64,000 nt of DNA from an uncultured Gammaproteobacteria bacterium. Lineage in GTDB: Bacteria > Pseudomonadota > Gammaproteobacteria > Arenicellales > CAJQKF01. The notes under the pieces are model-generated. The model saw only the letters and a program-made list of their open reading frames with translations. It was not told where the DNA came from and made no database searches. Below, piece by piece: positions 37,370 through 58,481 of the stretch; position 1 is the first letter of the stretch; every line of letters starts with the position of its first letter. The position numbers were made by a program, and so were the translations under genes. The stretch spans positions 33,944 to 97,943 of the forward strand of contig CAYGJZ010000001.1 of NCBI GenBank assembly GCA_964350265.1. The letters run 5' to 3'.

Positions 37370-39043
37370 ATGGCCAAGACCGATCTTGAGATTGCCCGCG
37401 AGGCGAAGATGCAGCCGATCAACGAGATCGCGTCGAAGATCGGCATTCCCGACGATGCGCTGGCGCCCTTCGGTCGTACCAAGGCCAAGGTGTCCTTCGA
37501 CTTCATCAACACGCTGAAGGACCGCAAGGACGGCAAGCTGATCCTGGTCACGGCGATGTCGCCGACCCCGGCCGGCGAAGGCAAGACCACCACCACGGTG
37601 GGACTCGGCGATGCCCTGAACCGCATCGGCAAGAAGACCATGATGTGCCTGCGCGAGCCGAGCCTCGGCCCGTGCTTCGGCATGAAGGGCGGCGCCGCCG
37701 GCGGCGGCTATGCCCAGGTAGTGCCGATGGAAGACATCAACCTGCACTTCACCGGCGACTTCCACGCCATCACCTCGGCCCACAACCTGCTGTCGGCGAT
37801 GATCGACAACCATGTCTACTGGGGCAACGAGCTCGGCTTCGACCTGCGTCGCATCTCCTGGCGCCGCGTGGTCGACATCAACGACCGCTCGCTGCGTTCC
37901 ATCGCCAGCGGCCTGGGCGGCGTCAGCAACGGCTTCGTGCGCGAGACCGGCTACGACATCACCGTCGCCTCGGAGATCATGGCCATCTTCTGCCTGGCGC
38001 GCGACCTGGATGATCTCAGCGAGCGGCTCGGCAACATCATCGTCGGCTACACCCGGGACCGCGAAGCCATCTATGCCCGCCAGGTGAAAGCCCCGGGCGC
38101 GATGACCGCGTTGCTGCGCGACGCGCTGTCGCCGAACCTGGTGCAGACGCTGGAGAACAACCCGGTGTTCATCCACGGCGGTCCCTTCGCCAACATCGCC
38201 CATGGCTGCAACTCGGTGATCGCCACCACCACCGCGCTCAAGCTGGCCGACTACGTGGTCACCGAGGCCGGCTTCGGCGCCGACCTCGGGGCCGAGAAGT
38301 TCTTCGACATCAAGTGCCGCAAGGCCGGCCTGAATCCCGCTGCCGCGGTCATCGTGGCCACCGTGCGTGCACTGAAGATGCACGGCGGCGTGGCCCGCGA
38401 TGCGCTGGGTGCCGAGGACATTCCGGCATTGAAGGCGGGACTGGCCAACCTTGGCCGTCACATCCGCAACGTCGGTCACTACGGCGTTCCGGTGGTGGTG
38501 GGCATCAACCGCTTCTCCGGCGATACCGACGGCGAGATCGAGGCGGTCAAGGCCTACTGCCGCGAGCTCGGCGTGGAAGCCATTTCCTGCACCCACTGGG
38601 GCGACGGTGGCGCCGGCGCCGAGGCACTGGCCGAGGCGGTGGCCAAGCTGGCCGACAGCGGCAGCGCGCAGTTCCGCACCCTGTACGACGACGACGTGCC
38701 GCTGTGGCAGAAGGCGAAGACCATCGCGCAGAAGATCTACGGCGCCGAGGACATCATCGCCGATGCCCGCGTGCGTGCGCAGTTCACCGCCTACGAGGAA
38801 GCCGGTTTCGGTTCGCTACCGATCTGCATGGCCAAGACGCAATACAGTTTCTCCACCGATCCGAAGCTGCTCGGCGCGCCGAGCGATCACGCGGTGGCCA
38901 TTCGCGAAGTGCGCCTGTCCGCCGGTGCCGGCTTCCTGGTGTGCATCTGCGGCGACATCATGACCATGCCTGGTTTGCCGCGAGTGCCCGCCGCAGACAA
39001 GATTTTCGTCGACGATAACGGCAATATCGAGGGATTGTTCTAG
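37370..39043 (+). CDS. fhs: Formate--tetrahydrofolate ligase
   Basis: 557-aa [19 protein letters not shown]-loop and full-length collinearity with the FTHFS family as recalled ([22 protein letters not shown]). Confidence 0.95.
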
Positions 39044-39103
39044 CCGTTCCACAGTGTGAAAACGGGCCCCGGCAGGGGACGATGGCGGGCGATGTAACAC
39101 CTT

Positions 39104-39175
39104 ACAAGTGATAGCCCGCCCCTATCGTTTCATTCGTTCAAATGACTTTACAAATCGAAGTCAGTCCGCTGAGAT
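39104..39175 (+). promoter_or_regulatory. Conserved MSA-island element, copy 4 (degenerate; far upstream of msmE)
   Basis: GATAGCCCGCCCCTATCGTTTCATTCGTTCAAATGACTTTACA (-35-like TTTACA 39147-39152), then N17, then TGAGAT. Shares the CTATCGT...A.AT.ACTTT.AC frame with copies 1-3, but weaker. Confidence 0.4.
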
Positions 39176-39679
39176 AGATGCAGGTCGGAGGCCGGTAACG
39201 ATGACGTTACCGGTTCGCCGAAACACCGTGAATCACGGTGTTTTCGCAGCGACAAGCAGAACCGGCCCTGGGGTGACACCCTGGCGAGAACAAGTCGCGA
39301 ACACCCTGGCCCGGTCCGCCGCGCCAGGCGGGGTTACGCGACCCGCCGCGACACCCGGCAGCATGTGCGACCCGGCTGCCAGTTGCCAACGGCAACTCGA
39401 CACGGCGCGAATGACAGGAGGAAACATGACGCGTAACCCCAGCTACGCGCAACGACGTGCGCAGCCGGCCACCCCGGCCCGAACAGGACAGAGCCATGCT
39501 CATGCCCTGTCTCGCGCCTGCGCCCTCTCGGTTTCCCGTTCGATTTACCAAGCTCATACTCCGGCCATGACAGCTCACCTGCCTTGCCCGGTGCCCTGAG
39601 TGAGGCCGCCCGGTGCCCATGCGGGCAACCGGTGATGCCTTAGCTACCCAAGAAGTTTGACCACGATAAGGAGGAAGCC

Positions 39680-40816
39680 ATGTTTCAACATCGAACGATT
39701 TCCCGGACCCTGAGCACCGCCGCTGCGGCGATGTTCGCGGTTGGTGTACCGGGAACCGCCCTCGCGGCGGACAAGGACTACGGCAATCCGGGGGAGCCGG
39801 TTGACCTGGTCATTGGTTACCAGCCGTACTACACCCAGTCCTGGTCCGGCGTGGTCATGCGCGGACAGGAACTGTGGAAGAAATACCTTCCGGAAGGTTC
39901 CAGCGTGGAATTCGCCATTGGCCTGCAAGGCGCCATCGTGGTGAACAACATGCTCGCCGGCAAGAACGACATCGGCTACATGGGCGACATGCCGGCCATC
40001 GTTGCCACCACCAAGGACGAGGTCGCCGACATTCGCATCGTCGCCACCCTCGGCACGGGCTGGGACATGTGCAACGTGTTCCTGGTGCGCAACGACGCAC
40101 CGGAATTCGCCGATGCACAGGAGGCCATGAAGTGGCTGGACGGCAAGATCGTCGCGGTGCCGCAGGGTAGCTGTACCGACCGCTTCGCCCGCGCCGTGTT
40201 CGAGAAGCTGTCCATCGAGCCGGAGGCCTACCTCAACCAGAACATCGAGGTCATCACCAGTGGCTTCCGCGTCGGCAAGCTGGACGCGGCGGTCATGTGG
40301 GAACCGACCACCTCGCGCCTGGTGGAAGAGGGCCTGGCCCGACGTGTTGCTTCCGGCGCCTCCGCCGATGAGAACGACGGTGGCTTCCTGGCCATGCGTG
40401 GCGACCTCATCAAGCAGCGCCCGGACGTGGTCAAGGGCTGGCTCGAGGCCGAGCTGGACGCGCAGCTTTTCCTCTCCGATCCGGCCAACTACATGGCGGT
40501 GGTGAAGATGGCGCAGGACCAGACCACCGGCTTCTCCGAGAAGATCCTGTGGAGCTCGCTGGCCGGTTCCTTCCCGGAATCCCAGGGTGGCGTGGAAGTG
40601 CGTGACTACAAGGAATACGCGATTACCCCGCGCGCCCAGGAGCTGCTGACCCGTGCGACCAAGTTCCTGCACTCGATCAAGAGCATCAAGTCGGACACCC
40701 TGCGTCCGGAAGCCGTGATGACCGAGTTCACCGAGGAGATCCTCAAGGAACGTGGCCTGACCGCGCCGATCGGCGAGATCAAGGCTCAGCCCGAGTCCGC
40801 CTACACCGGTAGCTGA
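39680..40816 (+). CDS. msmE: Sulfonate-type (NMT1/TauA-SsuA-like) ABC substrate-binding protein
   Basis: 378-aa ORF. AAGGAGG RBS, signal peptide ...GTALAA. First gene of a binding-permease-ATPase-permease set, the same order as msmEFGH. Confidence 0.75.
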   Translation: MFQHRTISRTLSTAAAAMFAVGVPGTALAADKDYGNPGEPVDLVIGYQPYYTQSWSGVVMRGQELWKKYLPEGSSVEFAIGLQGAIVVNNMLAGKNDIGYMGDMPAIVATTKDEVADIRIVATLGTGWDMCNVFLVRNDAPEFADAQEAMKWLDGKIVAVPQGSCTDRFARAVFEKLSIEPEAYLNQNIEVITSGFRVGKLDAAVMWEPTTSRLVEEGLARRVASGASADENDGGFLAMRGDLIKQRPDVVKGWLEAELDAQLFLSDPANYMAVVKMAQDQTTGFSEKILWSSLAGSFPESQGGVEVRDYKEYAITPRAQELLTRATKFLHSIKSIKSDTLRPEAVMTEFTEEILKERGLTAPIGEIKAQPESAYTGS

Positions 40817-40861
40817 TCGGCAGGTCATCGACGATCCGTCGTCGACGACCCGTCCGTGACT

Positions 40862-40897
40862 GCCTGGTTCATGCGCCAGCGCGCGCATGAACCAGGC
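40862..40897 (+). other. Intercistronic 15-bp perfect hairpin between msmE and msmF
   Basis: GCCTGGTTCATGCGC-CAGCGC-GCGCATGAACCAGGC, with no following T run. Confidence 0.6.
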
Positions 40898-41021
40898 AAC
40901 CGCTGCCCTGTAACCACGTCCGCGGCACCAGGGTCATCAACCACCGCGCCCTGCCGGGTCCGGTGACCAGGCCAGGACCCTGCCGCAAGTTCGATTCCAT
41001 GTCTGACATCCCAAGGAGTTT

Positions 41022-42398
41022 GTGCGCCATGCCGAGGAGTTTCGCGTGAACGAGGCGCTGGTATCGCTGCTCAAGGAAAGCATGCCCTTCCGGGTGGTTT
41101 CCGACGAGTTGCTCAATCGTATCGCCGCCATATCCCGGCGAACGACCTACGACCCCGGCGAGGTGATCTACCACGCCGACGAGCCATCCGACGATATCTA
41201 CATCGTTGTCGAGGGCCGCATCGAACATTCCCTGCCCAGCAACGTGGTCAGCCACAACCCGATCCGCGTGGTCGAGCGTGGCGACGTGTTCGGCTGGGCA
41301 TCCCTGCTGAAGAACCGGCCGGGGCGATTGGCGAAGACGACTTCGCTGGTCAAGTCGGAAGTACTGCGTATCGACGCGCAGCAACTCATGGCGGTGCTGG
41401 ACTCGGATCCGGCGACCGCAGATACCGTCATGAGCCGGTTCGCTACCATGATCAACAAGGATTTCGCCGTGTCCGGAGAAAACGCCCAACTCACCACGCC
41501 CAGTCAAACCGCGACGGGCGCCGACTCGAGAAGCAGTTCCGCTGGCGGCGCGCCCATCACGGGCACGGCGCTGACCATGTTCCGCTTCGCCCAGTGGCTG
41601 CGCAGCCCGCGTCCATACCTGATGCTGATCGGGTTCGCGCTGCTGTTCGGCTTCTGGTTCCTGACCACCGAGGTGTGGAAACTGCCGCGCTTCCGCGAGA
41701 TGCCCGGCCTCACCGAGGTCTGGCGAGAGTGGTTGTCGGAGAACCCCATCTACGGCCTGTCCGTCCACGTGCCCGAGTACTACACCCATATCTGGGTGAG
41801 CATCCGGCGGGTCATGATCGCCTTCGGCCTGGCCACCGTGCTCGGCGTGCCGCTGGGACTGTTCCTCGGCTGGTCGCAGAAGTTCAAGGAATACGTGTTC
41901 CCGGTGTTCGAGACGCTGCGTCCGATCCCGGTGCTGGCCTGGGTGCCGCTGGCCATCCTGATGTTCGCCGGGCTGGAAACCCCGGTCATCTTCCTGACCT
42001 TCCTGGCCTCGTTCTATGCCACTGCGCTGAACACCATGCTCGGCGTGCAGTCCATCGACGAGTCCTACAGTCGCGCCGCCTACTGTCTCGGCGCCAGCGA
42101 CGCACAGGTCTTCCGCCACATCGTCATTCCCGGCGCCATGCCGTTCATCTTCACCGGCCTGCAGATCTCCATCGGCGTGGCCTGGTTCTCGCTGGTGGCG
42201 GCGGAGATGGTCTCGGGACAGTACGGTCTTGGCTACGTCATCAACACTTCGTACACGATGGTTCGTTACCCGACCATCATCATCGGCATGATCACGCTCG
42301 GCGTCATCGGCTACGCCACCAGTGCCATGGTGCGCATGCTCGGCGACCACCTGATGCAGTGGCGTGTACGTGAACTCGCACTGGGAGAGCAGAATTGA
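41022..42398 (+). CDS. msmF: NitT/TauT-family ABC permease with N-terminal cNMP-binding-like domain
   Basis: 458-aa ORF (GTG 41022; the alternative GTG 41046 has better GAGGAG spacing). Residues 1 to about 150 are paralogous to the 36802 protein (GEVIYHADE..D.IYIVVEGRI...FGWASLLKNRPGRLAKTTSL). Residues 200-458 are a 6-TM BPD permease. Confidence 0.8.
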   Translation: MRHAEEFRVNEALVSLLKESMPFRVVSDELLNRIAAISRRTTYDPGEVIYHADEPSDDIYIVVEGRIEHSLPSNVVSHNPIRVVERGDVFGWASLLKNRPGRLAKTTSLVKSEVLRIDAQQLMAVLDSDPATADTVMSRFATMINKDFAVSGENAQLTTPSQTATGADSRSSSAGGAPITGTALTMFRFAQWLRSPRPYLMLIGFALLFGFWFLTTEVWKLPRFREMPGLTEVWREWLSENPIYGLSVHVPEYYTHIWVSIRRVMIAFGLATVLGVPLGLFLGWSQKFKEYVFPVFETLRPIPVLAWVPLAILMFAGLETPVIFLTFLASFYATALNTMLGVQSIDESYSRAAYCLGASDAQVFRHIVIPGAMPFIFTGLQISIGVAWFSLVAAEMVSGQYGLGYVINTSYTMVRYPTIIIGMITLGVIGYATSAMVRMLGDHLMQWRVRELALGEQN

Positions 42399-43270
42399 TT
42401 TCCGCGGTAGAAAACATGAAGGGCAACGGCGGTTCCGCACCGTTGTCCGCCAACGGCGGAGCCATCCGCATCGACGACGTGGTCAAGGTCTATGACCCGG
42501 ACGGCGCAGCGGTGATGGCGGTGGATCATTGCAGCCTGGACATCAAGGCCGGCGAGATCTGCATGATCGTTGGCCCGTCCGGCTGCGGCAAGACCACCTT
42601 GCTGAACGCCATTGCCGGCTTCCACGACATCACTTCCGGCAGCATCCACATGGATGGCGAACTGCTGTGCGGCCCCGGCAAGCCGATGGCCCAGCCCGGT
42701 TCCGACCGCATCGTGGTGTTCCAGAACGGCGCGCTGTTTCCCTGGCGCACCAACCTGGAGAACGTCATCTTCGGCCCGGTGATGCAGGGCAAGATGAGCA
42801 AGAAGGAGGCCATCGAGAAGGCCCGTGGCATGATGGCCGACGCCGGTCTCAACGACGTCGAGTACAACTACCCGGGCGAGATCTCCTCCGGCGTGCGTCG
42901 CCGCGTGGAAATCGTCCGCGCGTTGATGAACGATCCCAAGGTGCTGCTGTTCGACGAGCCCTACCGCGCCCTCGACTCGCTGACCAAGTCGGTCATGCAC
43001 GAGGCGTTGCTGGAGATCTACTACCGCAACCCGGTGACCATCTTCTTCATCACCCACGACCTGGAAGAGGCGTTGTTCGTCGGCCACAAGGTGGCCATCA
43101 TGACCACCCGCCCGTGCAAGCCGAAGAAGATTCTCGACGTCGACATTCCGCATCCGCGGGACTACGGCGTGTTGACCAGCAAGCGATTCCGCGAGCTGAT
43201 GGAAGAAACCGTTGATGCCGTGCACGAGGAGGCCCTGAAGGCCTTCGATCGCGGCGAGAAGGAGGGCTGA
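42395..43270 (+). CDS. msmG: ABC ATPase with non-canonical signature motif
   Basis: 291-aa ORF (TTG overlapping the msmF stop; alternative ATG 42416). Walker A GPSGCGKTT, signature position reads ISSGVRRR, Walker B LLFDEP, H-loop ITHD. Confidence 0.85.
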   Translation: MISAVENMKGNGGSAPLSANGGAIRIDDVVKVYDPDGAAVMAVDHCSLDIKAGEICMIVGPSGCGKTTLLNAIAGFHDITSGSIHMDGELLCGPGKPMAQPGSDRIVVFQNGALFPWRTNLENVIFGPVMQGKMSKKEAIEKARGMMADAGLNDVEYNYPGEISSGVRRRVEIVRALMNDPKVLLFDEPYRALDSLTKSVMHEALLEIYYRNPVTIFFITHDLEEALFVGHKVAIMTTRPCKPKKILDVDIPHPRDYGVLTSKRFRELMEETVDAVHEEALKAFDRGEKEG

Positions 43271-43273
43271 TCG

Positions 43274-44107
43274 ATGGCCACAGCCACCAAGCGCGCTGGT
43301 CGCAAACTGCCGCTGCGCTCGATGCGTCGCGGCGTCATTTCCATCATCGTCTTCCTGGTCCTGTGGGAGATCGGTTCAAGCTTCGGCGAGTGGTTCGGCA
43401 TCCAGCTGCCGTGGATCGGGCGCATTCCCCCGCCCACCGACGTGCTGGTTTCCTGGAAGGGCCTGCTCACCGACCAGGGCTACTGGTACAGCTGGTACCA
43501 GACCTACCTGCGGGTGTTCGCCGGCTTCCTCGCCGCCATGGTGGTGGGGATACCCTTCGGACTGGCCATGGCGGTGAGCCGCACGGCCTACGGCATCCTG
43601 TTCCCGCCCTTCGAGGTGCTGCGTCCGATCCCGCCGCTGGCCTGGGTGCCGGCCGCGATCATCTTCTGGCCCACCCAGGAGCTGTCGATCGCCTTCGTGA
43701 CCTTCCTTGGCGCCTTCTACACCATCGTCATCAACGTGCTCGGCGGAGCCCGCTCCATCGACGTCCGCTACTTCCAGGCGGCGCAGTCCATGGGTGCCAA
43801 TTCCTGGAACGTGTTCCGGCGCATCATCCTGCCCGGCACGCTGCCCTCGATCTTCGTCGGCGCGGCGGTGGGCATGGGCATCACCTGGGAAGTGGTGGTG
43901 GCCGCGGAGATGATCTCCGGTGGCGGCGGCGCCATCCAGGGCGGTTCCGGTGGTGGCCTGGGCTTCTTCATCTGGAACTCCTACGTTGGCGGCTCGGATA
44001 CGCAGATCGTGGTCGGCATGATCAGTATCGGCATCGCCGGCTACATCTCCAGCGAGCTGATCCGTTGGCTCGGCACGTTTGCCACGCCGTGGCTGCGTCA
44101 ACGATGA
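43274..44107 (+). CDS. msmH: NitT/TauT-family ABC permease (second TMD)
   Basis: 277-aa ORF. The BPD-transporter permease core is paralogous to the MsmF C-terminal half (LRPIPPLAWVPAAIIFWP...). Confidence 0.85.
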   Translation: MATATKRAGRKLPLRSMRRGVISIIVFLVLWEIGSSFGEWFGIQLPWIGRIPPPTDVLVSWKGLLTDQGYWYSWYQTYLRVFAGFLAAMVVGIPFGLAMAVSRTAYGILFPPFEVLRPIPPLAWVPAAIIFWPTQELSIAFVTFLGAFYTIVINVLGGARSIDVRYFQAAQSMGANSWNVFRRIILPGTLPSIFVGAAVGMGITWEVVVAAEMISGGGGAIQGGSGGGLGFFIWNSYVGGSDTQIVVGMISIGIAGYISSELIRWLGTFATPWLRQR

Positions 44108-44151
44108 GCCCCACCAAGGCCGCTTAACGAACTTCAAGAGATAGCATAGTC

Positions 44152-45078
44152 ATGGCGATTCAATCCTCCGCCCGGCAGGCAGCAGCCTCCGGCGGCAAAC
44201 TCGGCTCCGACATCGCCCCGGGCGAGATCAAGGTCGAGAACGTTTCCAAGTCCTATGGCACCGGTCCGGTGGCGCGCGAAGTCGTGCGCGACTGTTCCTT
44301 CGTCATCGAGCGCGGCAAGCTCAACGTGATGATCGGCCCCTCCGGCTGCGGCAAGAGCACGCTGATCCGCCTGATCGCCGGCTTCCAGCGGCCCAACAAG
44401 GGCAGCGTGACGCTGGACGGCAAGCCGATCACCGAGCCCTCCCGCGACCGGCTGGTGGTGTTCCAGGAGACCGCGCTGTTCCCCTGGATGACCACCTGGG
44501 AGAACATCGTCTACGGGCCCAAGGCACGTGGCACGTTCAACCGCGAGACCCGCGAGCGGGCAGAGTTCCTGCTCGACAAGGTGGGCCTGGTGCAGTTCCG
44601 CGAGAAGTATCCCACCCAGTTGTCCGGTGGCATGCAGCGTCGCGCCGAACTGGCCCGGGCGATGATCAACAATCCCCAGGTGATGATCCTCGACGAGCCG
44701 TTCCGCGGCCTCGACTCGATGACCAAGGAACTGATGTGGGAGTACTACGCCTCGCTGTTCGAGGAGTCCGGCCGCACCAACTTCTTCGTCACCACCGACA
44801 TCGACGAAGCGGTGTTCCTGGCCGACCGCATGATCATCATGACCAACATCCCCACCCGCGTGCGCGCGGTGCTCGACATCGACCTGCCGCGACCGCGCAA
44901 GCTGTCCGACATGATCGAGGACGACCGCGCCAACGAGGTGAAGATGAAGGCACTGGCGATCCTCCACGAGGAGGCGATGAAGTCGTTCAGCGGCGGCAGC
45001 GCCGCGGCTTCGGACTTCGTCGAGGCCTACTCCCGCCGGGTCGGCAAGCGCAACCGGTCCGACGGCGACGACGGCTGA
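44152..45078 (+). CDS. Second ABC ATPase (canonical signature, H-loop His replaced)
   Basis: 308-aa ORF. Walker A GPSGCGKST, signature LSGGMQRR, Walker B ILDEPF, but the H-loop position reads VTTD instead of THD. Confidence 0.85.
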   Translation: MAIQSSARQAAASGGKLGSDIAPGEIKVENVSKSYGTGPVAREVVRDCSFVIERGKLNVMIGPSGCGKSTLIRLIAGFQRPNKGSVTLDGKPITEPSRDRLVVFQETALFPWMTTWENIVYGPKARGTFNRETRERAEFLLDKVGLVQFREKYPTQLSGGMQRRAELARAMINNPQVMILDEPFRGLDSMTKELMWEYYASLFEESGRTNFFVTTDIDEAVFLADRMIIMTNIPTRVRAVLDIDLPRPRKLSDMIEDDRANEVKMKALAILHEEAMKSFSGGSAAASDFVEAYSRRVGKRNRSDGDDG

Positions 45079-45281
45079 TGCCCGACTGGCTGGTATCGCG
45101 CGCCACCGTCATCACCCTGGCGGTGATCGGCGGGGTGATCTCGCTGGTGGTGTCGCAGCTGCATGGTCGTGGCCGCATCGACGACGCCCAGGCGAAGAAG
45201 TTCAACCGCGTCGGCTACGGCTTCATGTGGGCCAGCATCGCGCTGTTCATCTACGCCGGCTTCCGCGCCGGCTACCAGTAG
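45078..45281 (+). CDS. Small two-TM membrane protein
   Basis: 67 aa, MPDWLVSRATVITLAVIGGVISLVV...FMWASIALFIYAGF. The ATG overlaps the ATPase stop (TGATG), implying translational coupling to the transporter operon. Confidence 0.55.
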   Translation: MPDWLVSRATVITLAVIGGVISLVVSQLHGRGRIDDAQAKKFNRVGYGFMWASIALFIYAGFRAGYQ

Positions 45282-45418: not shown

Positions 45419-46042
45419 TCAGCCTGCGTGGTCGCCGTCGGCAACGGTGCCGATGGGCTTGCAGTCCGACATGCAGCGTTCTGCGCTGGCGTCCGGGCGG
45501 TCGTCGTTGATGAAGGCATCCTTGTTCGGCATCTCGATGGCCGGCATGGTCTCCGCGTTCATGGTGAAGTCCTCGGCCACCAACCCGTTCAGGTGGTAGA
45601 TGTAGGCGGACACCGCGTAGACCTCGTCGTTGGTCAGCGAGTATGGCCGGTCCATCGGCATGGCACGACGCACGTAGTCGAAGATGATCGGCGCATAGGG
45701 ATACATGCTGCCGGGCGTCAGCTTGCGCGGACGCTCGGTCATGCTGCCGATGCCACCGACCATGCTGCCGTACACAGGCCCGCCGCCGGCATCGGCGCCG
45801 TGGCAGGCCAGGCACTTGGCCTCGTACACCGCCTTGCCCTCGGCCACCGTGCCCTGTCCTTCGGGCAGGCCGACACCGGTGGGTGCCTGGATCTCGATGT
45901 CCCACAGGGCGAGGTCGCTCTCGGCGATGTCCGAGCCGAAGGCAGCGCCTTCCGGACGTTCACCGAAGTCGGCCTGTACCGCGCCGACGAGGGCGAAGGA
46001 CAGCGTTGCCGCGATGGCGGCATGCAGTTTACGCGATGGCAT
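45419..46042 (-). CDS. Monohaem cytochrome c subunit of sulfite dehydrogenase (SorB/SoxD-like)
   Basis: 207-aa ORF with signal peptide and a single CLACH haem motif. Start overlaps the molybdoprotein gene by 14 nt. Confidence 0.75.
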   Translation of the reverse strand: MPSRKLHAAIAATLSFALVGAVQADFGERPEGAAFGSDIAESDLALWDIEIQAPTGVGLPEGQGTVAEGKAVYEAKCLACHGADAGGGPVYGSMVGGIGSMTERPRKLTPGSMYPYAPIIFDYVRRAMPMDRPYSLTNDEVYAVSAYIYHLNGLVAEDFTMNAETMPAIEMPNKDAFINDDRPDASAERCMSDCKPIGTVADGDHAG

Positions 46043-47387
46043 TTTTCACCTCCCCACTTTCGGAAACGGACCAGGGGAAGACACCGTTGTGGTGCTGCAC
46101 GAAGCCGACGATCTCGCGCTTGCGCGCCAGGTCTTCCACCGTGGGCTGCACGTAGCCGGTGTCGTCCATGGCGCGGCTGGCGATCTTCGCCGGGCTGCCG
46201 TCCCACTGCCAGTTGTAGCGGAAGCGGGTCAGGCACTTGTCCATCACCGGTCCTTCCACCGTGGCCTCGCGCCAGGTCTTGCCGCCGTCGAAGGTCACGT
46301 CCACCGCCTTGATCTTGCCAAGCCCCGACCAGGCAAAGCCCTGCACCTCGTAGAGGCCGGGGCCGGCCATGTTCATGCCGCCGGAGGGGTTGGTGATCAC
46401 CGACTTGCATTCCATCTCCATGCTGAACTGGCGCCACTTGCCGTCCGGCATCGGGTCGGTGTAGCGGGCGGTCTCGCCGCGCACGTGGGCCGGCTGGTCC
46501 ACCACCTTGATGCGGCGCAGCCACTTCACGTTGGTGTTGCCTTCCCAGCCGGGGATGATGGCGCGCAGCGGGTAGCCCTGCTCGGCACGCAGCATCTCGC
46601 CGTTCTGGCCATAGGCCAGCAGCACGTCGTCCATGATCTTCTCGATGGGAATCGAGCGCAGGTGGCCGGAGCCGTCACCGCCCTCGAGCATCACCCACTT
46701 GCCTTCCGCCTTCACACCGGCCTCGTCCAGCAGCCAGGCCAGCGGAATGCCGGTCCACTGTCCGCAGGACAACAGGCCGTGGCTCTGCTGCACGGTGGTC
46801 GCCTTCGGCTCGCGCCAGTCGGTGAGCGTGTTGCCCGAGCACTCCAGGAAGTGGAAGCGTGATACCGACGGGTAGCGCATCAGGTCGTTCATGGTGAACA
46901 CCAGCGGCCGCTCCACCAGTCCGTGGATGACCAGCCTGTGCTGCTCCGGGTCGATCTGTGCAACGCCGTTGTGGTGACGTTCGAAGAACAGCCCGTTCGG
47001 CGTCACGATGCCGATCTGGTGCTGCAGCGGCGTCATGCTCCAGTCGGAGAAGTTCTGCTTGTTGACGAAGACATCCGTACGGCGCCGCTTGACGTGATCC
47101 TCGTACTGGATCGGCATGCCGTAATCCGTTTCGGGAATCGGCCGTCCCATGGTCTTGTTGCTCTCCGGCACCGCCAGTGGCTCGGCGCGCGCGGCGGATA
47201 TGCCCGCGCCTGAGGCCATGGCAACACCTGCCATGGAAAGACCGGATTGCAGGAACCGGCGACGTTCGCCGGCGGAAGGTGCCCTGGAGGGCTGCGTGCT
47301 CAGCGTTCGGTCGTTCGGCGCATCGGCCGAACCCGAACCGCCCGCCTCCCCGCTGCTGCGGGTACGGACTTTCTTGGTAGTCATCAA
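46029..47387 (-). CDS. SoxC/SorA-family molybdopterin sulfite dehydrogenase
   Basis: 452-aa ORF. Tat signal ERRRFLQSG. Sulfite-oxidase-fold motifs HFLECSGN, GWEGNTNVKWL and a C-terminal dimerisation domain. Confidence 0.85.
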   Translation of the reverse strand: MMTTKKVRTRSSGEAGGSGSADAPNDRTLSTQPSRAPSAGERRRFLQSGLSMAGVAMASGAGISAARAEPLAVPESNKTMGRPIPETDYGMPIQYEDHVKRRRTDVFVNKQNFSDWSMTPLQHQIGIVTPNGLFFERHHNGVAQIDPEQHRLVIHGLVERPLVFTMNDLMRYPSVSRFHFLECSGNTLTDWREPKATTVQQSHGLLSCGQWTGIPLAWLLDEAGVKAEGKWVMLEGGDGSGHLRSIPIEKIMDDVLLAYGQNGEMLRAEQGYPLRAIIPGWEGNTNVKWLRRIKVVDQPAHVRGETARYTDPMPDGKWRQFSMEMECKSVITNPSGGMNMAGPGLYEVQGFAWSGLGKIKAVDVTFDGGKTWREATVEGPVMDKCLTRFRYNWQWDGSPAKIASRAMDDTGYVQPTVEDLARKREIVGFVQHHNGVFPWSVSESGEVKNAIA

Positions 47388-47495
47388 TTGCTCCTCCGAC
47401 AGTGATCTATCGGTTTATCGTGATTGGCTATGATGCCGTTGTCTGTTGCTTGCCGTTTCTCCTCGCGGTTTCAGGTGGGAATAGTGCTCATGCAA

Positions 47496-47577
47496 GAATA
47501 GAAACGCGCTTGGCAAACTGCAAAGTGATCTCGCTTATCGGATGATAGGCAGCGGCTTGCTTGACAGCGATGGAGCC
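47496..47577 (-). promoter_or_regulatory. Conserved MSA-island promoter/operator element, copy 2 (upstream of the sulfite dehydrogenase operon)
   Basis: The minus strand reads GGCTCCATCG...GCCTATCATCCGATAAGCGAGATCACTTTGCAG-N-CTATTC. The -10-like box is about 110 nt before the ATG at 47387. Confidence 0.6.
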
Positions 47578-47655
47578 CTCGCGCCATGGTGCACCGTTGC
47601 CAACCCACATGGTCCCGTCCTTGTCCGCCGCCCGTTCCCGTCTTCTGCCTGGTGT

Positions 47656-48618: not shown

Positions 48619-48626
48619 ATGCCTTC

Positions 48627-49619
48627 CTAGCCGCGCGACTTGCTCGTCGCACGCTTGCGCCGCGCCACCTTCGAGGTCATCGGCGGCACCGCGTTGTGCA
48701 TGCGGTTCTCGCTGAACCAGCGCTCGATGCCGCCGTTGTCGATGGCCTCGCCGAGCACGTCGATGACCGCCTTGGCCATCGGCATCATCGGGTCGCCCTC
48801 CACCCACACCAGGCCGACGGTCTCCTTCACCACCGGGTCTTCCAGCGCCACCCGGCGGGTGCCCGGGCAGTTGCTCAACATTTCCATGAAGTGACTGGGT
48901 ATGATGGTGGCCAGCTTGGCGGCGGCCACGTGGAAGGCGAGCTGGAAGATGGAGTTGGATTCCATCTTCGGCTGCGGCACGAAGCCGGAGCCGGCGAAGG
49001 CGCGGTCGAGGATCTGCCGCTCCGGGGTGCTCGGCGAGAGCAGGCACAACGGCAGTTGCGCCGCCTCTTCCCAGGTGGCGGACTCGCGGCCTTCCAGCCA
49101 GTCGTTTTCCGGCAGCAGCAGGATCAGCCGCTCGTCGTACAGGGGCAGGCTCTGCAGCCGGTCCATGGGCTGGCTGGAGAGGTAGGTGATGCCGACGTCG
49201 AACTCGAAGTTGGTCAGGCCGACGTTGAGCCGGTTCTGGCCGATGAACTGGATGTCCACCTGCACCCCGGGATGACGCTCGACGAACAGCTGGTTGACCA
49301 CCGGCAGCACCGGCGAGGTCATCGGCATGGCGCCGACCCGCAGCAGGCCCTGCAGGTTGCCGTGCATGATGGCCAGCTCCTCGAGCATGGCATTCTTGTC
49401 GGCGAGGATGCGCTTGGCCCAGGTGACCACCCGCATGCCTTCCTCGGTGAAGCCCTGGAAGCGGTGTGCCCGCAGTATGATGGGCACGTCGAGCTCGATC
49501 TCCAGTTGCTTGATGGCGCTGGAAAGACTCGGCTGGGAGACGTGGCAGTGTTCGGCGGCGCGGCCGAAGTGGCCGTGCTCCTCGAGGGAAACTAGGTACT
49601 CGAACTGTCGTAGAAACAT
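48627..49619 (-). CDS. LysR-family transcriptional regulator
   Basis: 330 aa from MFLRQFEYLVSLEEHGHFGRAAEHCHVSQPSLSSAIKQLE (ATG 49619; the ORF track TTG at 49634 is less likely). Divergent from the tauE-like gene. Confidence 0.9.
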   Translation of the reverse strand: MFLRQFEYLVSLEEHGHFGRAAEHCHVSQPSLSSAIKQLEIELDVPIILRAHRFQGFTEEGMRVVTWAKRILADKNAMLEELAIMHGNLQGLLRVGAMPMTSPVLPVVNQLFVERHPGVQVDIQFIGQNRLNVGLTNFEFDVGITYLSSQPMDRLQSLPLYDERLILLLPENDWLEGRESATWEEAAQLPLCLLSPSTPERQILDRAFAGSGFVPQPKMESNSIFQLAFHVAAAKLATIIPSHFMEMLSNCPGTRRVALEDPVVKETVGLVWVEGDPMMPMAKAVIDVLGEAIDNGGIERWFSENRMHNAVPPMTSKVARRKRATSKSRG

Positions 49620-49707
49620 GCTCGTTGCCTGCAAAAATCAACCATACATCGCCGAGCCCACGTCGTTCGTCGGCCGGCACAACGAGACGAGAGCCGGCTC
49701 GAAGTTT

Positions 49708-49735
49708 GAACGCTAAGACGTTGATCATAGCGTTC
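49708..49735. promoter_or_regulatory. Palindromic LysR-type operator in the lysR / tauE divergent region
   Basis: GAACGCTA-N12-TAGCGTTC (8-bp perfect arms), 33 nt upstream of the tauE-like ATG. Confidence 0.55.
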
Positions 49736-49767
49736 CCACGCCGGGTGGTCGAGGGAGGAGGGCGACC

Positions 49768-50529
49768 ATGACGATGATGACGATCCTGCCACTGGCCGTG
49801 GTGGTCCTGGTTTCCGGCGCATTGATCGGCTGTGTCGGCATCGGCGGCGTGCTGCTGGTGCCGGCGCTGGCCTACATCGGCGGCATCGACGTGCACCTGG
49901 CCATTGCCAGCGTGATGCTCAGCTATTTCTTCACCGGCGTGCTCGGCACCTGGCTGTATGCGCGCAAGGGATCCATCACCTGGGCGATGGCCGGCACCCT
50001 GTGCGCCGGCGCCATGCCCGGTGCCTTCCTCGGCGCCGCCGCGGTGCACGCGGTGCCGGGGCCGACGGTGGAACTGATCATCGGCCTTTTGGTGATCTTC
50101 TCCGGCCTGCATGCCCTGTACAGCGGCGAACGCAGTGCCAGCCGGGAGAGCCTGTCGGCGGCGGCACTGTTCGCGGTGGGCTTGTTCACCGGCTTCGGTT
50201 CGTCCCTCACCGGCTCTGGCGGGCCGTTGCTGCTGGTGCCGCTGCTGGTGTGGATGGGGCTGCCGGTGCTGGTCTCCATCGGTCTCAGCCAGGTCATCCA
50301 GGTGCCCATCGCGGTGCTGGCCACCGCGGGCAACATCGCCTACGGCGAGATCGACCTGGTGCTGGCACTGGTGGTGGCGGCGATGCTGATGCTCGGCGTG
50401 GTGGCCGGTGCGCGGCTGGCCCACCGGGTGTCGGCACGGACCCTGAAGCAGGTGGTGGCCTGGGTGATGGTGGCGGTGGGCGTCATCATCGTGGTGCGGA
50501 TCGGCTGGACCATGCTCGGCGGCGGTTGA
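49768..50529 (+). CDS. TauE/SafE-family sulfite (anion) exporter
   Basis: 253-aa ORF with about 8 TM segments. TauE/SafE-type glycine-rich repeats (GIGGVLLVPAL, GSGGPLLLVPLL). Confidence 0.8.
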   Translation: MTMMTILPLAVVVLVSGALIGCVGIGGVLLVPALAYIGGIDVHLAIASVMLSYFFTGVLGTWLYARKGSITWAMAGTLCAGAMPGAFLGAAAVHAVPGPTVELIIGLLVIFSGLHALYSGERSASRESLSAAALFAVGLFTGFGSSLTGSGGPLLLVPLLVWMGLPVLVSIGLSQVIQVPIAVLATAGNIAYGEIDLVLALVVAAMLMLGVVAGARLAHRVSARTLKQVVAWVMVAVGVIIVVRIGWTMLGGG

Positions 50530-50537
50530 GGCGAACC

Positions 50538-51536
50538 GTGGATCTCTCCGGCCTGGTGCGCGACTACGGCGACGTCGACGCCGAGTGGCGCGCCGCGCGC
50601 GAGGATGCCGCGCTGTTCGACTTCTCCTTCATGTCGCGGGCGCGGCTGGCCGGCGCCGGTGCCGCCGCCGCGCTCAACGCCTTCCAGCCCCGGCCGGTGG
50701 AGCGGCTGGCGGTGGGCCGCATCGCCTATGCCCTGCGTCTCGCCGCCGACGGCTTCGTACGCACCGATCTCACCGTGTGGCGGCTGGCCGAGGATGTCTT
50801 CGAGCTGTACAGCGGCGACCACCGGGACATCGACGACCTGCTCGCCATGGCGGGTGACGACGTCGCCGTGACCGACCTGTCCGAACATGCCGTCTTCGCC
50901 GTGCAGGGGCCGTCGACCCCGGCGCGGATGCACGCCCTGTGCGGCGACGCCCTGGACGGGCTCGACTACTTCGGCTTTCGCGCCATCGAGGTCCATGGCC
51001 TGCCGGTGCTCGCCGGGCGGCTGGGCTATACCGGCGAGAAGGGCGTCGAGCTGATCGTCGATGCCGACCATGCCGCGGTCCTGTGGCAACACCTCGCCGA
51101 CCGCTTGCCGCCGGCCGGCTTCGCCGCCATCGACCGGCTGCGCATCGAGGCCGGCTTCGTGCTGTTCGCCAACGAGTGCCGGCTGCCGGTGCGGCCGGCG
51201 GACCTGGGTCTTGGCGGGTTCGCCGCCGACCCGGCGCCGCCGCGCTGGCGGCTGACCGGCTTCCGCGCCGCCCAGGCCCTGCCCACCGAGCCCTGGCGTC
51301 CGCCCGGGCCGCCGCGGCCACCACGGGCGGGGGAGATCGCGGTGACCTCCGCCTGCCGCCACGGCGACGGCGTCATCGGCCTCGGCTTCGTCGACGCCGG
51401 GTCGGCCGCCGCGCGGCTGCACGACCCGGTCACCTTCGGCGAGGTGGTGGCCGCCTCCATCCCCTTTCTCGACCCCGAAAAACGCCGTCCCCGCGGGCCC
51501 TGGCGGGCCGAACCCGGCCCCGGTTCCGCCGGCTGA
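50538..51536 (+). CDS. GcvT-family (aminomethyltransferase-like) folate-binding protein
   Basis: 332 aa from a GTG (VDLSGLVRDYG) in the frame of ORF 50001..51536. GcvT landmarks AALFDFSFM, FAVQGP, GYTGEKGVEL, RLRIEAGF. Starts 8 nt after the tauE stop. Confidence 0.75.
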   Translation: MDLSGLVRDYGDVDAEWRAAREDAALFDFSFMSRARLAGAGAAAALNAFQPRPVERLAVGRIAYALRLAADGFVRTDLTVWRLAEDVFELYSGDHRDIDDLLAMAGDDVAVTDLSEHAVFAVQGPSTPARMHALCGDALDGLDYFGFRAIEVHGLPVLAGRLGYTGEKGVELIVDADHAAVLWQHLADRLPPAGFAAIDRLRIEAGFVLFANECRLPVRPADLGLGGFAADPAPPRWRLTGFRAAQALPTEPWRPPGPPRPPRAGEIAVTSACRHGDGVIGLGFVDAGSAAARLHDPVTFGEVVAASIPFLDPEKRRPRGPWRAEPGPGSAG

Positions 51537-51548
51537 ACCATCAAACGG

Positions 51549-51634
51549 GGCTATCGAACCGCGCTCTTTTAAGTTCCCGGCTATCGTCTGATAAGCGAGA
51601 TCACTTTGACGCGCTTTCCCGCCGCTCACTATTC
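51549..51634 (+). promoter_or_regulatory. Conserved MSA-island promoter/operator element, copy 3 (upstream of the panB-like gene)
   Basis: GGCTATCGAA-N20-GGCTATCGTCTGATAAGCGAGATCACTTTGACG (51606-51611), then N17, then CTATTC (51629-51634). Same 30-nt spacing of the two GGCTATCG boxes as copy 1. Confidence 0.65.
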
Positions 51635-51794
51635 TGTGTCCCGAACAACGAGTTGCCGCGACGTGTCCCGATCCCTCGCCCGCAACCGCGCCCGCTGGGC
51701 GGTGGCGCGCGGGTGGCATTGCGCGTTGCCATTGGCAGGAAAGCCACGCCGCGACCACGCCAATCACCATGTACTACATGCAACAGGAGGACCG

Positions 51795-52691
51795 ATGAGT
51801 CAATCATCCGAGACGGCCGCACCGGCCAAGCGCAAGAAAGTCACCATCCCCATGCTCATGGACAAGATGAAGCGGGGCGAGGCGATCACGCAGATGGCCG
51901 TGTACGAGTACCGTCACGCCGTGGTCTGCGACCGGCTCGGCATGGACATCCTGTGCGTGTCCGATTCCGGCGGCATGATCCTGTTCGGCCACGAGAGCAC
52001 CACCTCCGTCACCTTCGAAGAGGTGATGATGATGTCCAAGGCCGTGCAGCGCGGTTCCAAGTACGGCCTGCGCATGGTCGACATGCCCTACTGGAGCTTC
52101 CACGTTTCCCCCGAGCAGGCGGTGGAGAATGCCGGCCGCTTCGTCCACGAGGCTGGCGCCGAGGTGATGAAGTGTGAAGGCAACCAGCACCATGCCAAGG
52201 CCATCGAGGCCATCATCAAGGCCGGCATCCCGGTGCAGGGCCACATCGGCATCACCCCCATGCGCATGCCCCAGCTCGGCGGCTTCCGCGCCCAGGGCAA
52301 GACCGCCGAAGACGCCAAGCGCCTGATCGACGACGCCTGGGCCTTCGTCGACGCCGGCTGCTTCTCCATCATGTGCGAAGTGGTCTCCAACGAGGTCAAC
52401 CAGTACCTCGCCGAGACCCTGCCGGTGCCGGTGATCTCGCTGGGCTCGGGCAACCGCGGCCACGGCGTGCACATCATCGCCAGCGACCTGTTCCACCTCT
52501 ACGAGGAACACGTGCCGCGGCACTCGAAGATCTACACCGATCTCATCCCGATCCTCGAGGACGTGTACACCCGCTACATGGACGACGTGCGCAACCGTGT
52601 CTACCCGGGCAAGGAGCACACCGTGTTCATGAAGGACGAGGAGCTCGCCGTGCTGAAGAAGGAGCTCAACTGGGAGCCGAAGACGGCCTGA
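51795..52691 (+). CDS. PanB-family (3-methyl-2-oxobutanoate hydroxymethyltransferase-like) protein
   Basis: 298 aa from MSQSSETAAP (AGGAGG RBS). Collinear with E. coli PanB as recalled: VSDSGGM/VGDSLGM, GHIGITP/GHLGLTP, GGFRAQGK/GGYKVQGR, PVISLGSG/PVIGIGAG, VYPGKEHT/VYPGEEHS. Confidence 0.8.
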   Translation: MSQSSETAAPAKRKKVTIPMLMDKMKRGEAITQMAVYEYRHAVVCDRLGMDILCVSDSGGMILFGHESTTSVTFEEVMMMSKAVQRGSKYGLRMVDMPYWSFHVSPEQAVENAGRFVHEAGAEVMKCEGNQHHAKAIEAIIKAGIPVQGHIGITPMRMPQLGGFRAQGKTAEDAKRLIDDAWAFVDAGCFSIMCEVVSNEVNQYLAETLPVPVISLGSGNRGHGVHIIASDLFHLYEEHVPRHSKIYTDLIPILEDVYTRYMDDVRNRVYPGKEHTVFMKDEELAVLKKELNWEPKTA

Positions 52692-58441: not shown

Positions 58442-58481
58442 TAAATATCAATTAGTTATCTATACCCCGAGACACGACTGG

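Follow-up and report, generated by a model that had tools for sequence, protein, structure and literature searches.

A conserved PanB-like clade associated with methanesulfonate monooxygenase genes and its possible role in loading one-carbon units onto tetrahydrofolate

Domain and equivalog matches identify positions 33-53 kb of the window, the whole 64-kb stretch of DNA analyzed here, as a methanesulfonate (MSA) regulon. It comprises msmABCD, a cNMP-binding gene, fhs, an msmEFGH-type transporter, soxCD, and LysR, TauE, GcvT-fold and PanB-family genes, together with three copies of a shared regulatory element:

33044..33130, + strand: element copy 1, upstream of msmA; GGCTATCG-N22-GGCTATCGTCCGATAAGACAGATCACTTTGACA-N18-TACTCT, with the TATCGTCYGATAAGNNAGATCACTTTG match at 33077-33103
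33182..34540, + strand: msmA, large Rieske subunit of MSA monooxygenase (Rieske and Ring_hydroxyl_A domains)
34621..35121, + strand: msmB, small hydroxylase subunit (weak Ring_hydroxyl_B and SnoaL_4 matches)
35236..35595, + strand: msmC, Rieske ferredoxin (domain match)
35623..36699, + strand: msmD, Fer2/FAD/NAD reductase (domain match)
36802..37236, + strand: stand-alone cNMP-binding-domain protein, 144 aa (domain match)
37370..39043, + strand: fhs, formate-tetrahydrofolate ligase (full-length FTHFS, 885 bits in Pfam)
39680..45078, + strand: msmEFGH-type sulfonate ABC transporter (domain matches)
45419..47387, - strand: soxD (cytochrome c) and soxC (sulfite dehydrogenase); TIGR04555, 625 bits against a cutoff of 420
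47446..47610, - strand: element copy 2, facing soxC; TATCGTCYGATAAGNNAGATCACTTTG match at 47521-47547, distal half diverged
48627..49634, - strand: LysR-family regulator, divergent from TauE (domain match)
49768..50529, + strand: TauE/SafE sulfite exporter (domain match)
50538..51536, + strand: GcvT-fold folate-binding protein, 332 aa (family and domain matches)
51549..51635, + strand: element copy 3, upstream of the PanB-like gene; TATCGTCYGATAAGNNAGATCACTTTG match at 51582-51608, TTGACG-N18-TATTCT at 51606-51635
51795..52691, + strand: PanB-like protein, 298 aa, a ketopantoate hydroxymethyltransferase paralogue (full-length Pfam PanB, Pantoate_transf, match)

MsmA, whose true start is likely the ATG at 33254, is 68-77% identical to MsmA of other loci and contains the hallmark CXH-X26-CXXH described as MsmA-specific (PMC4433239). 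The Ring_hydroxyl_B score of MsmB (25.7 bits) falls slightly below Pfam's 27. The transporter genes encode, in order, an SsuA-family binding protein, a permease, an ATPase, a permease and a second ATPase, and the first permease carries a cNMP-binding domain at its N-terminus. The stand-alone cNMP-binding gene recurs in 21 of the 80 species loci in which we located the PanB-like gene, and a LysR gene, here likely encoding the regulator of the module, is adjacent in 42. The original prediction placed fhs directly after the oxygenase unit; instead, the cNMP-binding gene and a GC-rich hairpin with a trailing T-run (read by eye at about 37262-37290) separate it from msmD, and fhs possesses its own promoter-like site. 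Fhs itself scores 915 bits against the NCBIfam equivalog NF010030 (cutoff 652) and adjoins the PanB-like gene or msmA in 14/80 loci.

The shared element is an operator/promoter of about 65 nt found 5′ of msmA, of soxC and of the PanB-like gene; its core pattern occurs three times in the window against 0.00 expected from 100 shuffles. The copies at msmA and at the PanB-like gene have another GGCTATCG half-site 30 nt upstream, and TTGAC(A/G)-N18-TAYTCT comes after the pattern. The copy facing soxC falls inside the 5′ end of a long EamA open reading frame, and its position, together with the gene call in locus L004, indicates that EamA probably starts at about 47743. The element is also kept 5′ of the PanB-like orthologues in two related loci, L001 and L002, where the flanks have diverged. 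The claim that the PanB-family gene has its own copy of the island promoter is thus borne out, and the broader proposal of a folate module under the shared promoter holds for this gene only: 5′ of fhs and in the LysR-TauE intergenic region the element is lacking, which leaves fhs and TauE-gcvT outside it.

The GcvT-like gene begins, as anticipated, 8 nt past the TauE stop (50527-50529), with a GTG start and GAGG just upstream, and is probably translationally coupled to TauE. Its product adopts a full T-protein fold (TM 0.77-0.81 to known T-protein-type folds) and retains the folate and catalytic residues (Asp, GYTGE and Arg); among its structural neighbors are folate domains from the sarcosine and dimethylglycine oxidases. 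Fold and folate residues are likewise shared with T-protein, dimethylglycine dehydrogenase, TMAO demethylase and DmdA. In such oxidases and demethylases the GcvT-like domain captures formaldehyde or iminium on THF as they form. Unlike T-protein and these folate domains, the 332-residue protein stands alone beside a sulfite exporter, and its scores fall well short of the equivalog cutoffs for GcvT, DmdA and Tdm. A GcvT-family gene is present in 39/80 loci and missing from about half, including an abundant marine TauE / PanB-like / msmABCD operon, and the protein is the least conserved of the cluster, at 59% identity where the PanB-like protein reaches 90%.

The PanB-like protein starts at the ATG at 51795 behind an AGGAGG ribosome binding site, the start listed earlier, 51606, being only the first in-frame TTG. 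Each of the PanB motifs named in the original prediction (VSDSGGM, VDMPY, KCEG, GHIGITP, CEVV and PVISLGSG) is present. The protein nevertheless scores 245.7 against the NCBIfam PanB subfamily, below the cutoff of 272, although it passes the TIGR00222 cutoff by 4 bits. It belongs to a discrete, highly conserved clade: 119 members average 80% identity (minimum 68%) and are only 29-34% identical to the PanB proteins of E. coli, M. tuberculosis and Burkholderia, which are 45-53% identical among themselves. In a set of 1.84 billion representatives at 50% identity, a single full-length sequence stands for the whole clade, and the full-length relatives that come next are at 47% and 43%. Members with 72-80% identity occur in MAGs labeled Alpha-, Beta- and Gammaproteobacteria, Acidimicrobiia and others.

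Comparison with solved PanB structures (EC 2.1.2.11; PDB 1M3U, 1OY0, 3EZ4) reveals both retention and rewriting of the active site. The Mg ligands and catalytic residues D45, D84, K112, E114, H136 and E181 are kept, these and Y25, S/T46 and D217 are clade-invariant, and all of the 2-oxoacid- and Mg-binding residues of PanB are retained. In contrast, residues invariant in the three solved enzymes are replaced throughout the clade (G44S, Q142M, S143R, G201S, I202L, Q211V, G220H and F229H), as is I212H at a position that varies (I/V) among solved PanBs. Most of the clade-specific replacements fall in the four motifs that surround the PanB ligand pocket (PMC13488298), so that LVGDS, HLGLTPQS, IPVIGIGAG and DGQILVMHD of PanB read CVSDS, HIGITPMR, VPVISLGSG and HGVHIIASD. 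The clade differs further in a C-terminal extension of roughly 22 residues, some of them clade-invariant, in being encoded with msmA under the msmA operator, and in having no panC, panD or folK neighbors. The noted absence of adjacent panC and panD extends beyond this locus: searches with approximate E. coli queries found no PanC or PanD homologue in the window, nor in any of 89 related loci up to 10 kb from the PanB-like gene.

Gene neighborhoods link the clade to MSA oxidation. Genes of the msm set occur in 54/80 species loci, msmA lies directly downstream on the same strand in 33, and TauE is present in 50. Conversely, among 14 msmA loci with at least 6 kb on both sides, 11 contain the PanB-like gene, and the other three (L114, L158 and L168) have no copy within 10 kb of msmA. 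To our knowledge the PanB-like gene is unmentioned in published Methylosulfonomonas msm regions. The LysR / TauE / GcvT-like / PanB-like block adjoins msm genes in unrelated lineages, and subsets of related loci add FolD, Fhs, MTHFR, FolC, 5-formyl-THF cyclo-ligase and NAD-type formate dehydrogenase. Together with the folate residues of the GcvT-like protein, these associations support the idea of a folate-linked MSA module.

Co-location of the two genes with msm is already known from Filomicrobium sp. Y, where LysR, TauE, 'glycine cleavage T' (332 aa), '3-methyl-2-oxobutanoate hydroxymethyltransferase', SoxC and SoxD lie beside msmEFGH and msmABCD, the GcvT and PanB genes being tabulated under 'reactions linked to methylotrophic pathways' (Henriques & De Marco 2015, PMC4433239, Table 1). 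That report lists the genes and makes no claim on clade, conservation, regulation or function; relative to it, the window has a different gene order and additionally holds fhs, cNMP-binding genes and the shared operator.

Because the PanB-like gene keeps constant company with msmA and is the best conserved of its partners, while the GcvT-like protein is optional and poorly conserved, the comparison reverses the original assignment, which made the GcvT-like protein the principal trap for formaldehyde and the PanB paralogue a side sink. On balance we favor a model in which the PanB-like protein does not serve pantothenate synthesis: as a dedicated accessory enzyme it accompanies msmA, shares its operator and would probably load the C1 unit of the oxygenase product (hydroxymethanesulfonate or formaldehyde) onto THF. 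From the observed gene identities, operator sharing, clade distinctness and gene associations we infer substrates and reaction directions as follows. MsmABCD would convert MSA to hydroxymethanesulfonate, the formaldehyde-bisulfite adduct. The sulfite half would be exported by TauE and oxidized by SoxCD; the C1 half would pass to tetrahydrofolate and be oxidized by FolD encoded elsewhere, with Fhs releasing formate and gaining ATP. Using the retained Mg2+ site, Lys112, His136 and the Glu181 base (E. coli numbering), the PanB-like protein could perform a reverse-PanB-type hydroxymethyl transfer, giving 5,10-methylene-THF and sulfite from THF and the C1 of hydroxymethanesulfonate or free formaldehyde, either directly or through a bound 2-oxoacid carrier. 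The TauE-coupled GcvT-fold protein would act as an auxiliary or back-up trap.

The spontaneous joining of formaldehyde to THF by condensation is too slow in vivo (PMC7073904) and the hydroxymethanesulfonate adduct is stable and reverses slowly (PMC6459274), which together imply the need for an enzyme. PanB has been named as a possible catalyst of this condensation through a ketoisovalerate carrier cycle (PMC7073904), and we see a functional analogy for the proposed role in Fae, which speeds formaldehyde loading onto the pterin C1 carrier H4MPT (discussed in the same paper). Fae and the PanB-like protein are non-homologous and differ in cofactor. We know of no described THF-dependent equivalent of Fae. 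Since every 2-oxoacid-binding residue is kept, a 2-oxoacid may also be a substrate. A few clade members have no sulfonate genes within 10 kb: in loci L010, L012, L014 and L017 the gene adjoins an HpcH/HpaI aldolase, and in L020 it is found with MTHFR, a DAO-type oxidase and an aldehyde dehydrogenase. Such settings are easier to square with a general role in formaldehyde or 2-oxoacid metabolism than with one specific to hydroxymethanesulfonate.

The retained 2-oxoacid and Mg sites also suit a doubtful alternative, that of the original prediction, in which the GcvT-like protein is the main route of formaldehyde to THF and the PanB paralogue runs forward as a sink of the aldolase type. There it would use methylene-THF or formaldehyde to hydroxymethylate a 2-oxoacid, such as pyruvate to give 4-hydroxy-2-oxobutanoate, and so serve assimilation or detoxification. 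E. coli PanB takes formaldehyde directly, the folate domains of sarcosine and dimethylglycine oxidases that resemble the complete GcvT-like fold capture it as it forms, and in four alphaproteobacterial MAGs the PanB-like gene adjoins an HpcH/HpaI 2-oxoacid aldolase. However, the patchy occurrence and low conservation of the GcvT-like protein argue against a main trap, the loci contain no recurrent follow-up enzyme (reductase, transaminase or other) for a hydroxymethylated 2-oxoacid, and their recurrent partners FolD, Fhs and FDH are enzymes of C1 oxidation. Quite unlikely, in our estimation, is a THF-independent lyase that would split Mg-bound hydroxymethanesulfonate into formaldehyde and sulfite upon deprotonation of its hydroxyl, leaving free formaldehyde to the GcvT-like protein or housekeeping routes. 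PanB belongs to the isocitrate lyase / PEP mutase superfamily, in which Mg-bound oxyacids are cleaved once the hydroxyl is deprotonated, and the splitting of 2-hydroxyacids by these lyases could serve, by analogy only, as a template for HOCH2-SO3-. We know of no superfamily member that acts on a sulfonate. The tight linkage to msmA, TauE and SoxCD, the clade-invariant basic residues of the pocket motifs (S143R, I212H, G220H and F229H) that could bind sulfonate, and the base catalysis needed to split the stable adduct (PMC6459274) are compatible with such a lyase; the folate-dependent hydroxymethyl transfer that is the norm of the PanB family, the folate enzymes of the neighborhood, the clade members lacking nearby sulfonate genes and the absence of a precedent in the literature searched weigh against it.

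It is highly improbable that the gene encodes an ordinary pantothenate isozyme lying by chance at the island edge, with the GcvT-like protein a spare glycine-cleavage T-protein. The full-length Pfam match, the narrow pass of TIGR00222, the G+C of 50-52 kb (0.707, nearer the flanking genome than the island) and the position beside mutY, kept in related locus L001, would agree with that origin. Such an isozyme is difficult to reconcile with an operator common to msmA and soxC, with a discrete clade above 72% identity across MAGs of several phyla, with rewritten pocket motifs, with the lack of pan genes nearby and with an operon shared with msmA in 33/80 species loci. Likewise, the GcvT-like gene, far below the GcvT cutoffs, sits between TauE and the PanB-like gene and not beside gcvH or gcvP. 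There is also a precedent, as the PanB paralogue RHE_PE00443 of R. etli does not substitute for panB (PMC3082293).

Methanesulfonate (MSA) is a major intermediate of sulfur in the atmosphere and the sea, and its catabolism has been described so far as the action of a monooxygenase followed by generic handling of formaldehyde and sulfite. In many lineages from the sea and from soil, a discrete and very highly conserved PanB paralog shares an operon with msmA, which suggests that the oxygenase is followed by a dedicated enzymatic step. G+C-aware ORF calling combined with Pfam and NCBIfam scans gives the following gene map for the region.

Genes in and next to the msm cluster of the window
33182-34540, plus strand: msmA
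34621-35121, plus strand: msmB
35236-35595, plus strand: msmC
35623-36699, plus strand: msmD
36802-37236, plus strand: stand-alone cNMP-binding protein, 144 aa
37370-39043, plus strand: fhs
39680-45078, plus strand: SsuA-type ABC importer, first permease with an N-terminal cNMP-binding domain
45419-47387, minus strand: soxD and soxC
47542-48618, plus strand: EamA transporter ORF
48627-49634, minus strand: LysR regulator
49768-50529, plus strand: TauE
50538-51536, plus strand: GcvT-family gene
51795-52691, plus strand: PanB-family gene
52830-53894, plus strand: mutY
53899-54168, plus strand: yggX

The long Rieske spacer CXH-X26-CXXH, which is MsmA-specific according to Henriques and De Marco (PMC4433239), is present in the window MsmA as CPH-X26-CMFH (long-ORF residues 111-143), and the region is therefore a bona fide MSA monooxygenase locus. 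Domain scans find both the four-component oxygenase and the SsuA-type importer in the cluster, and on sequence grounds the locus is an MSA regulon. Fhs is matched at equivalog level (NF010030, 915.1 against a cutoff of 652, with residues 2-557 of 557 covered). Its gene had been placed directly after the oxygenase unit, but the cNMP-binding gene and a GC-rich hairpin with a T-run, spotted by eye in the intergenic sequence, separate msmD from fhs. Apart from this adjacency and the start of the PanB-like gene, every sequence statement in the original prediction of a C1 module is borne out, including the 8-nt gap between TauE and the GcvT-like gene (TGA at 50527-50529, GTG start at 50538). The cNMP-binding domain occurs twice in the cluster, once as the stand-alone protein after msmD and once as an N-terminal fusion to the first ABC permease (41022-42398, 458 aa); the fusion is also found in the related loci L001 and L004. 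At 45078-45281 an ORF of 67 aa, predicted to have two membrane helices and assigned to no Pfam family, runs across the stop codon of the last ABC ATPase gene, and an ORF of 66-69 aa lies at the matching position in L001, L002, L004 and L007.

A recurring block of ~65 nt, GGCTATCG-N22-GGCTATCGTCYGATAAGNNAGATCACTTTGAC followed 18 nt on by TAYTCT, links the PanB-like gene to the sulfonate genes. The 27-nt core of the block has three copies in the 64 kb against 0.00 expected, which lie upstream of three genes: msmA, soxC (on the minus strand) and the PanB-like gene. The copy at the PanB-like gene includes TTGACG-18-TATTCT at 51606-51635, which a generic promoter scan flagged independently, and the block is retained ahead of the PanB-like orthologs of L001 and L002, where the surrounding intergenic sequence diverges. 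Neither the region upstream of fhs nor the LysR-TauE intergenic region contains the block. The proposal that fhs, the GcvT-like gene and the PanB-like gene share a promoter thus holds for the PanB-like gene, which has its own copy, and not for fhs or the TauE-gcvT pair. As judged from the operator, the PanB-like gene is regulated together with those for the oxygenase and the sulfite dehydrogenase. Its start, earlier put at 51606, is the ATG at 51795 with AGGAGG just ahead. The predicted mRNA leader (51636-51794, ~160 nt) is G+C-rich, shows no conservation in either L001 or L002 and matches no Rfam family; one tRNA is the only Rfam match in the window. The long EamA ORF (358 aa) takes in the distal half of the soxC operator (47542-47742), and its counterpart in L004 is called as 291 aa, equivalent to a start at ~47743 in the window, so the start of the long ORF is probably wrong.

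The PanB-like protein has the domain and the catalytic residues of PanB together with altered ligand-pocket motifs. It matches Pantoate_transf over the full length (PF02548, 265.6 bits, profile positions 1-258 of 259) and PDB 1M3U with E = 4e-43, and it scores 211.6 against a cutoff of 207.55 for TIGR00222 and 245.7 against 272 for NF001452. All PanB motifs quoted in the original prediction are found in it. The acid/base residues D45, D84, K112, E114, H136 and E181 (E. coli PanB numbering), which are strictly conserved in PanB (PMC13488298), are invariant across 119 members of the clade, as is the full catalytic set of Y25, D45, S/T46, D84, K112, E114, H136, E181 and D217. Around the ligand pocket PanB has four conserved motifs, LVGDS, HLGLTPQS, IPVIGIGAG and DGQILVMHD (PMC13488298); the PanB-like protein lacks these and reads CVSDS, HIGITPMR, VPVISLGSG and HGVHIIASD. 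At many positions where three solved PanBs agree, the clade has a different residue that is itself invariant (among them G44S, A83V, L85M, F87Y, Y90F, G116N, Q142M, S143R, G201S, I202L, Q211V, V214I, G220H and F229H); I212H is clade-invariant too, at a position that varies among the solved PanBs. The swaps fall mostly in the four pocket motifs or at the neighboring positions 83, 85, 176 and 177, which tune ligand contacts in PanB (PMC13488298).

Members of the clade share a mean identity of 80% (minimum 68%), whereas they are only 29-34% identical to the PanBs of E. coli, M. tuberculosis and Burkholderia, outside the range of orthologous PanBs; these three are mutually 45-53% identical. A search of 5.8 billion proteins returned 2321 matches, the best 120 of which are 76-100% identical. 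Among 1.84 billion representatives at 50% identity the clade comprises one full-length representative (75%), beyond which the next full-length relatives, at 47% and 43%, likewise have non-canonical motifs and ordinary PanBs follow at 31-40%. PLSDB plasmids contain no clade member, their best match being 37% identical. These comparisons place the PanB-like protein in a discrete, strongly constrained clade separate from ordinary PanB. As originally stated, no panC or panD is adjacent: E. coli PanC and PanD query sequences find zero homologs in the window and no match in 89 related loci.

The gene context of the clade was surveyed with one genome per species, which identified a relative in 222 genomes. 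Of these, the best 80 (72-80% identity) are mostly metagenome-assembled genomes (MAGs) labeled Alpha-, Beta- or Gammaproteobacteria or Acidimicrobiia, with a few labeled otherwise; the loci nearest to that of the window are metagenomic, one being labeled Gammaproteobacteria. When the window proteins are mapped onto these best 80 of 222 loci, an msm gene of any kind is found in 54, MsmA at 60% identity or more in 39, and msmA lies immediately downstream of the PanB-like gene on the same strand in 33. TauE occurs in 50 of the 80, LysR in 42, a GcvT-family protein in 39 (directly after TauE in at least 19), the stand-alone cNMP-binding protein in 21 and Fhs in 14. An abundant marine layout (L007-L009) runs LysR, TauE, PanB-like, msmABCD and msmEFGH and lacks the GcvT-like gene; its form of the PanB-like protein is present in 187 index blocks, TARA samples among them. 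A second layout consists of PanB-like, cNMP, TauE and GcvT genes, with Fhs next in several loci. Further folate enzymes join individual loci: 5-formyl-THF cyclo-ligase, MTHFR and FolC in Bradyrhizobium sp. NP1, an MTHFR fusion and formate dehydrogenase in L032, MTHFR in L020, and FolD in several, some of which have it between msmE and msmA. In the converse direction, 14 metagenomic msmA loci with at least 6 kb on either side contain the PanB-like gene in 11 cases, TauE in 11, the GcvT-like gene in 5, SoxC in 3 and Fhs in 2; in the other three of these well-covered loci the PanB-like gene is absent within 10 kb of msmA, and sulfonate genes are missing within 10 kb of a few clade members. Taken together, the neighborhoods show the PanB-like clade traveling with msmA, TauE and folate enzymes.

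Several of these loci differ in composition. In L132, L134, L136 and L137, which are metagenomic msm loci, divergent msmE and msmA genes flank a FolD homolog that shares 48-49% identity with the E. coli protein. A variant Rieske oxygenase, ~50% identical to MsmA and with a spacer of 17 rather than 26 residues, adjoins the PanB-like/cNMP/TauE/GcvT/Fhs module in two loci (L068:5149-6814 and L072:17199-20749) and may be a variant C1-sulfonate oxygenase. The same module stands beside an MsmEFGH-type transporter, 64-86% identical to that of the window, in L063, L069 and L084. The MAG JAPPQJ01 has two separate PanB-like genes (L067 and L074), each 74% identical to that of the window, one followed by msmABCD and the other behind Fhs, LysR and TauE.

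The GcvT-like protein presents a different picture. It has a GCV_T domain (PF01571, 154.5 bits), does not reach the equivalog cutoffs (TIGR00528, 104.9 against 235.85; NF001567, 132.6 against 300) and scores far below those for DmdA and Tdm; an exact look-up of its sequence gave no match. The AlphaFold (AF2) model (pLDDT 93.5) has the three-domain T-protein fold, with a TM score of 0.80 to T-proteins (1YX2, 1WOO) and 0.77-0.81 to the folate domains of sarcosine and dimethylglycine oxidases. D77, which is the catalytic Asp, aligns with T-protein residues, as do GYTGE at 163-167 and R202, and all of them are invariant in 43 homologs. From this predicted fold and these residues, the protein is plausible as a folate-dependent C1 acceptor. 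Identification as YgfZ was rejected, as no YgfZ model matches and the TM score is 0.63 to YgfZ versus 0.80 to T-proteins. Here and, by neighbor identity, in related loci the gene adjoins TauE and the PanB-like gene rather than gcvH or gcvP. At 50-52 kb the G+C content is 0.707, which could mean that the GcvT-like and PanB-like genes belong to the core genome rather than to the island; this reading was rejected because the block also adjoins msm genes in other lineages and the operator is present at the PanB-like gene. The GcvT-like protein is only 45-60% identical in neighborhoods where the best 120 PanB-like matches reach 76-100%, and in the syntenic locus L001 it is 59% identical, the lowest value of the cluster, versus 90% for the PanB-like protein. 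It is optional and fast-evolving.

Hydroxylation of the MSA methyl group yields hydroxymethanesulfonate, the formaldehyde-bisulfite adduct. Assuming a hydroxyl pKa near 11.7, we estimate that the half-life of the adduct at cytoplasmic pH is on the order of minutes, so that cleavage without catalysis would not sustain growth-level flux. The adduct, which is both stable and reversible, has a dissociation constant of ~2e-4 M above the bisulfite pKa, and its cleavage via the alkoxide reaches 43 per second when the pH is high (PMC6459274). The spontaneous reaction in which formaldehyde condenses with THF could support a doubling time of only ~three weeks, no THF counterpart of Fae is known, and PanB has been named as a possible catalyst of formaldehyde-THF loading through a ketoisovalerate carrier cycle (PMC7073904). 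An enzyme acting on or cleaving hydroxymethanesulfonate was not found in the literature searched. We tentatively propose, giving the idea rather less than an even chance, that the PanB-like clade is an unrecognized THF-dependent "formaldehyde-activating" hydroxymethyltransferase that moves the C1 unit of hydroxymethanesulfonate or formaldehyde to 5,10-methylene-THF with release of sulfite. In the most likely mechanism, the transfer from adduct or formaldehyde to THF would be of the reverse-PanB type, sulfite would be removed by TauE and SoxCD, FolD (encoded elsewhere in the genome) and Fhs would yield formate and ATP, and the GcvT-like protein would act as an auxiliary trap. The folate-linked interpretation originally put forward is supported in broad terms, with the PanB paralog rather than the GcvT-like protein as the key player.

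There are three rival explanations. The enzyme could run in the forward direction as a 2-oxoacid hydroxymethylase, for which the retention of the 2-oxoacid ligands of PanB speaks, as does an HpcH aldolase gene adjoining the PanB-like gene in four MAGs. In these alphaproteobacterial MAGs (L010, L012, L014 and L017, ~8950-11815) the PanB-like protein is 78-79% identical to that of the window, its gene lies between those for a HAD hydrolase and an HpcH/HpaI 2-oxoacid aldolase, and msm, TauE and GcvT genes are absent within 10 kb. Alternatively, the protein could be a lyase that acts on the adduct independently of THF. That it is simply an ordinary PanB is countered by the separation of the clade from PanBs, by the operator common to the PanB-like gene, msmA and soxC, by the gene context, and by the precedent of a PanB paralog in R. 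etli that does not substitute for panB (PMC3082293).

The proposed THF-dependent transfer, if correct, would fill an unassigned step in MSA catabolism and provide the first natural enzyme for formaldehyde-THF condensation, which would settle whether a natural equivalent of Fae exists for THF. It would also supply a part for synthetic C1 assimilation and correct the "panB" annotation of the clade in at least 222 species-level genomes. The PanB-like gene offers a marker of MSA users, with stronger conservation than msmE. Its location with msm and GcvT-like genes has already been published once, in passing: beside msmEFGH and msmABCD, Filomicrobium sp. Y has a LysR regulator, TauE, SoxC, SoxD, a "glycine cleavage system protein T" (996 nt, or 332 codons including the stop) and a "3-methyl-2-oxobutanoate hydroxymethyltransferase", the last two described as "reactions linked to methylotrophic pathways" (PMC4433239, Table 1). 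The window matches that locus in having LysR, TauE, T-protein-type, PanB-type, SoxC and SoxD genes beside the msm genes. This 2015 table entry is the only link between MSA and a PanB-type gene in the literature searched, within which the clade-level picture and the proposed role are, as far as shown, unpublished.

The surroundings of the regulon have features of their own. Genes for an HNH endonuclease, a MerB-like alkylmercury lyase and a glyoxalase-family protein form a run at 24648-26311, just before the dip in G+C that opens a lower-G+C stretch at 26-50 kb. On the other side, a tRNA-Phe gene (58366-58441) is followed by a fall in G+C to 0.54-0.60 and by small ORFs only, mostly on the minus strand and with zero Pfam matches; the stretch 58366-64000 looks like a separate integrated element.
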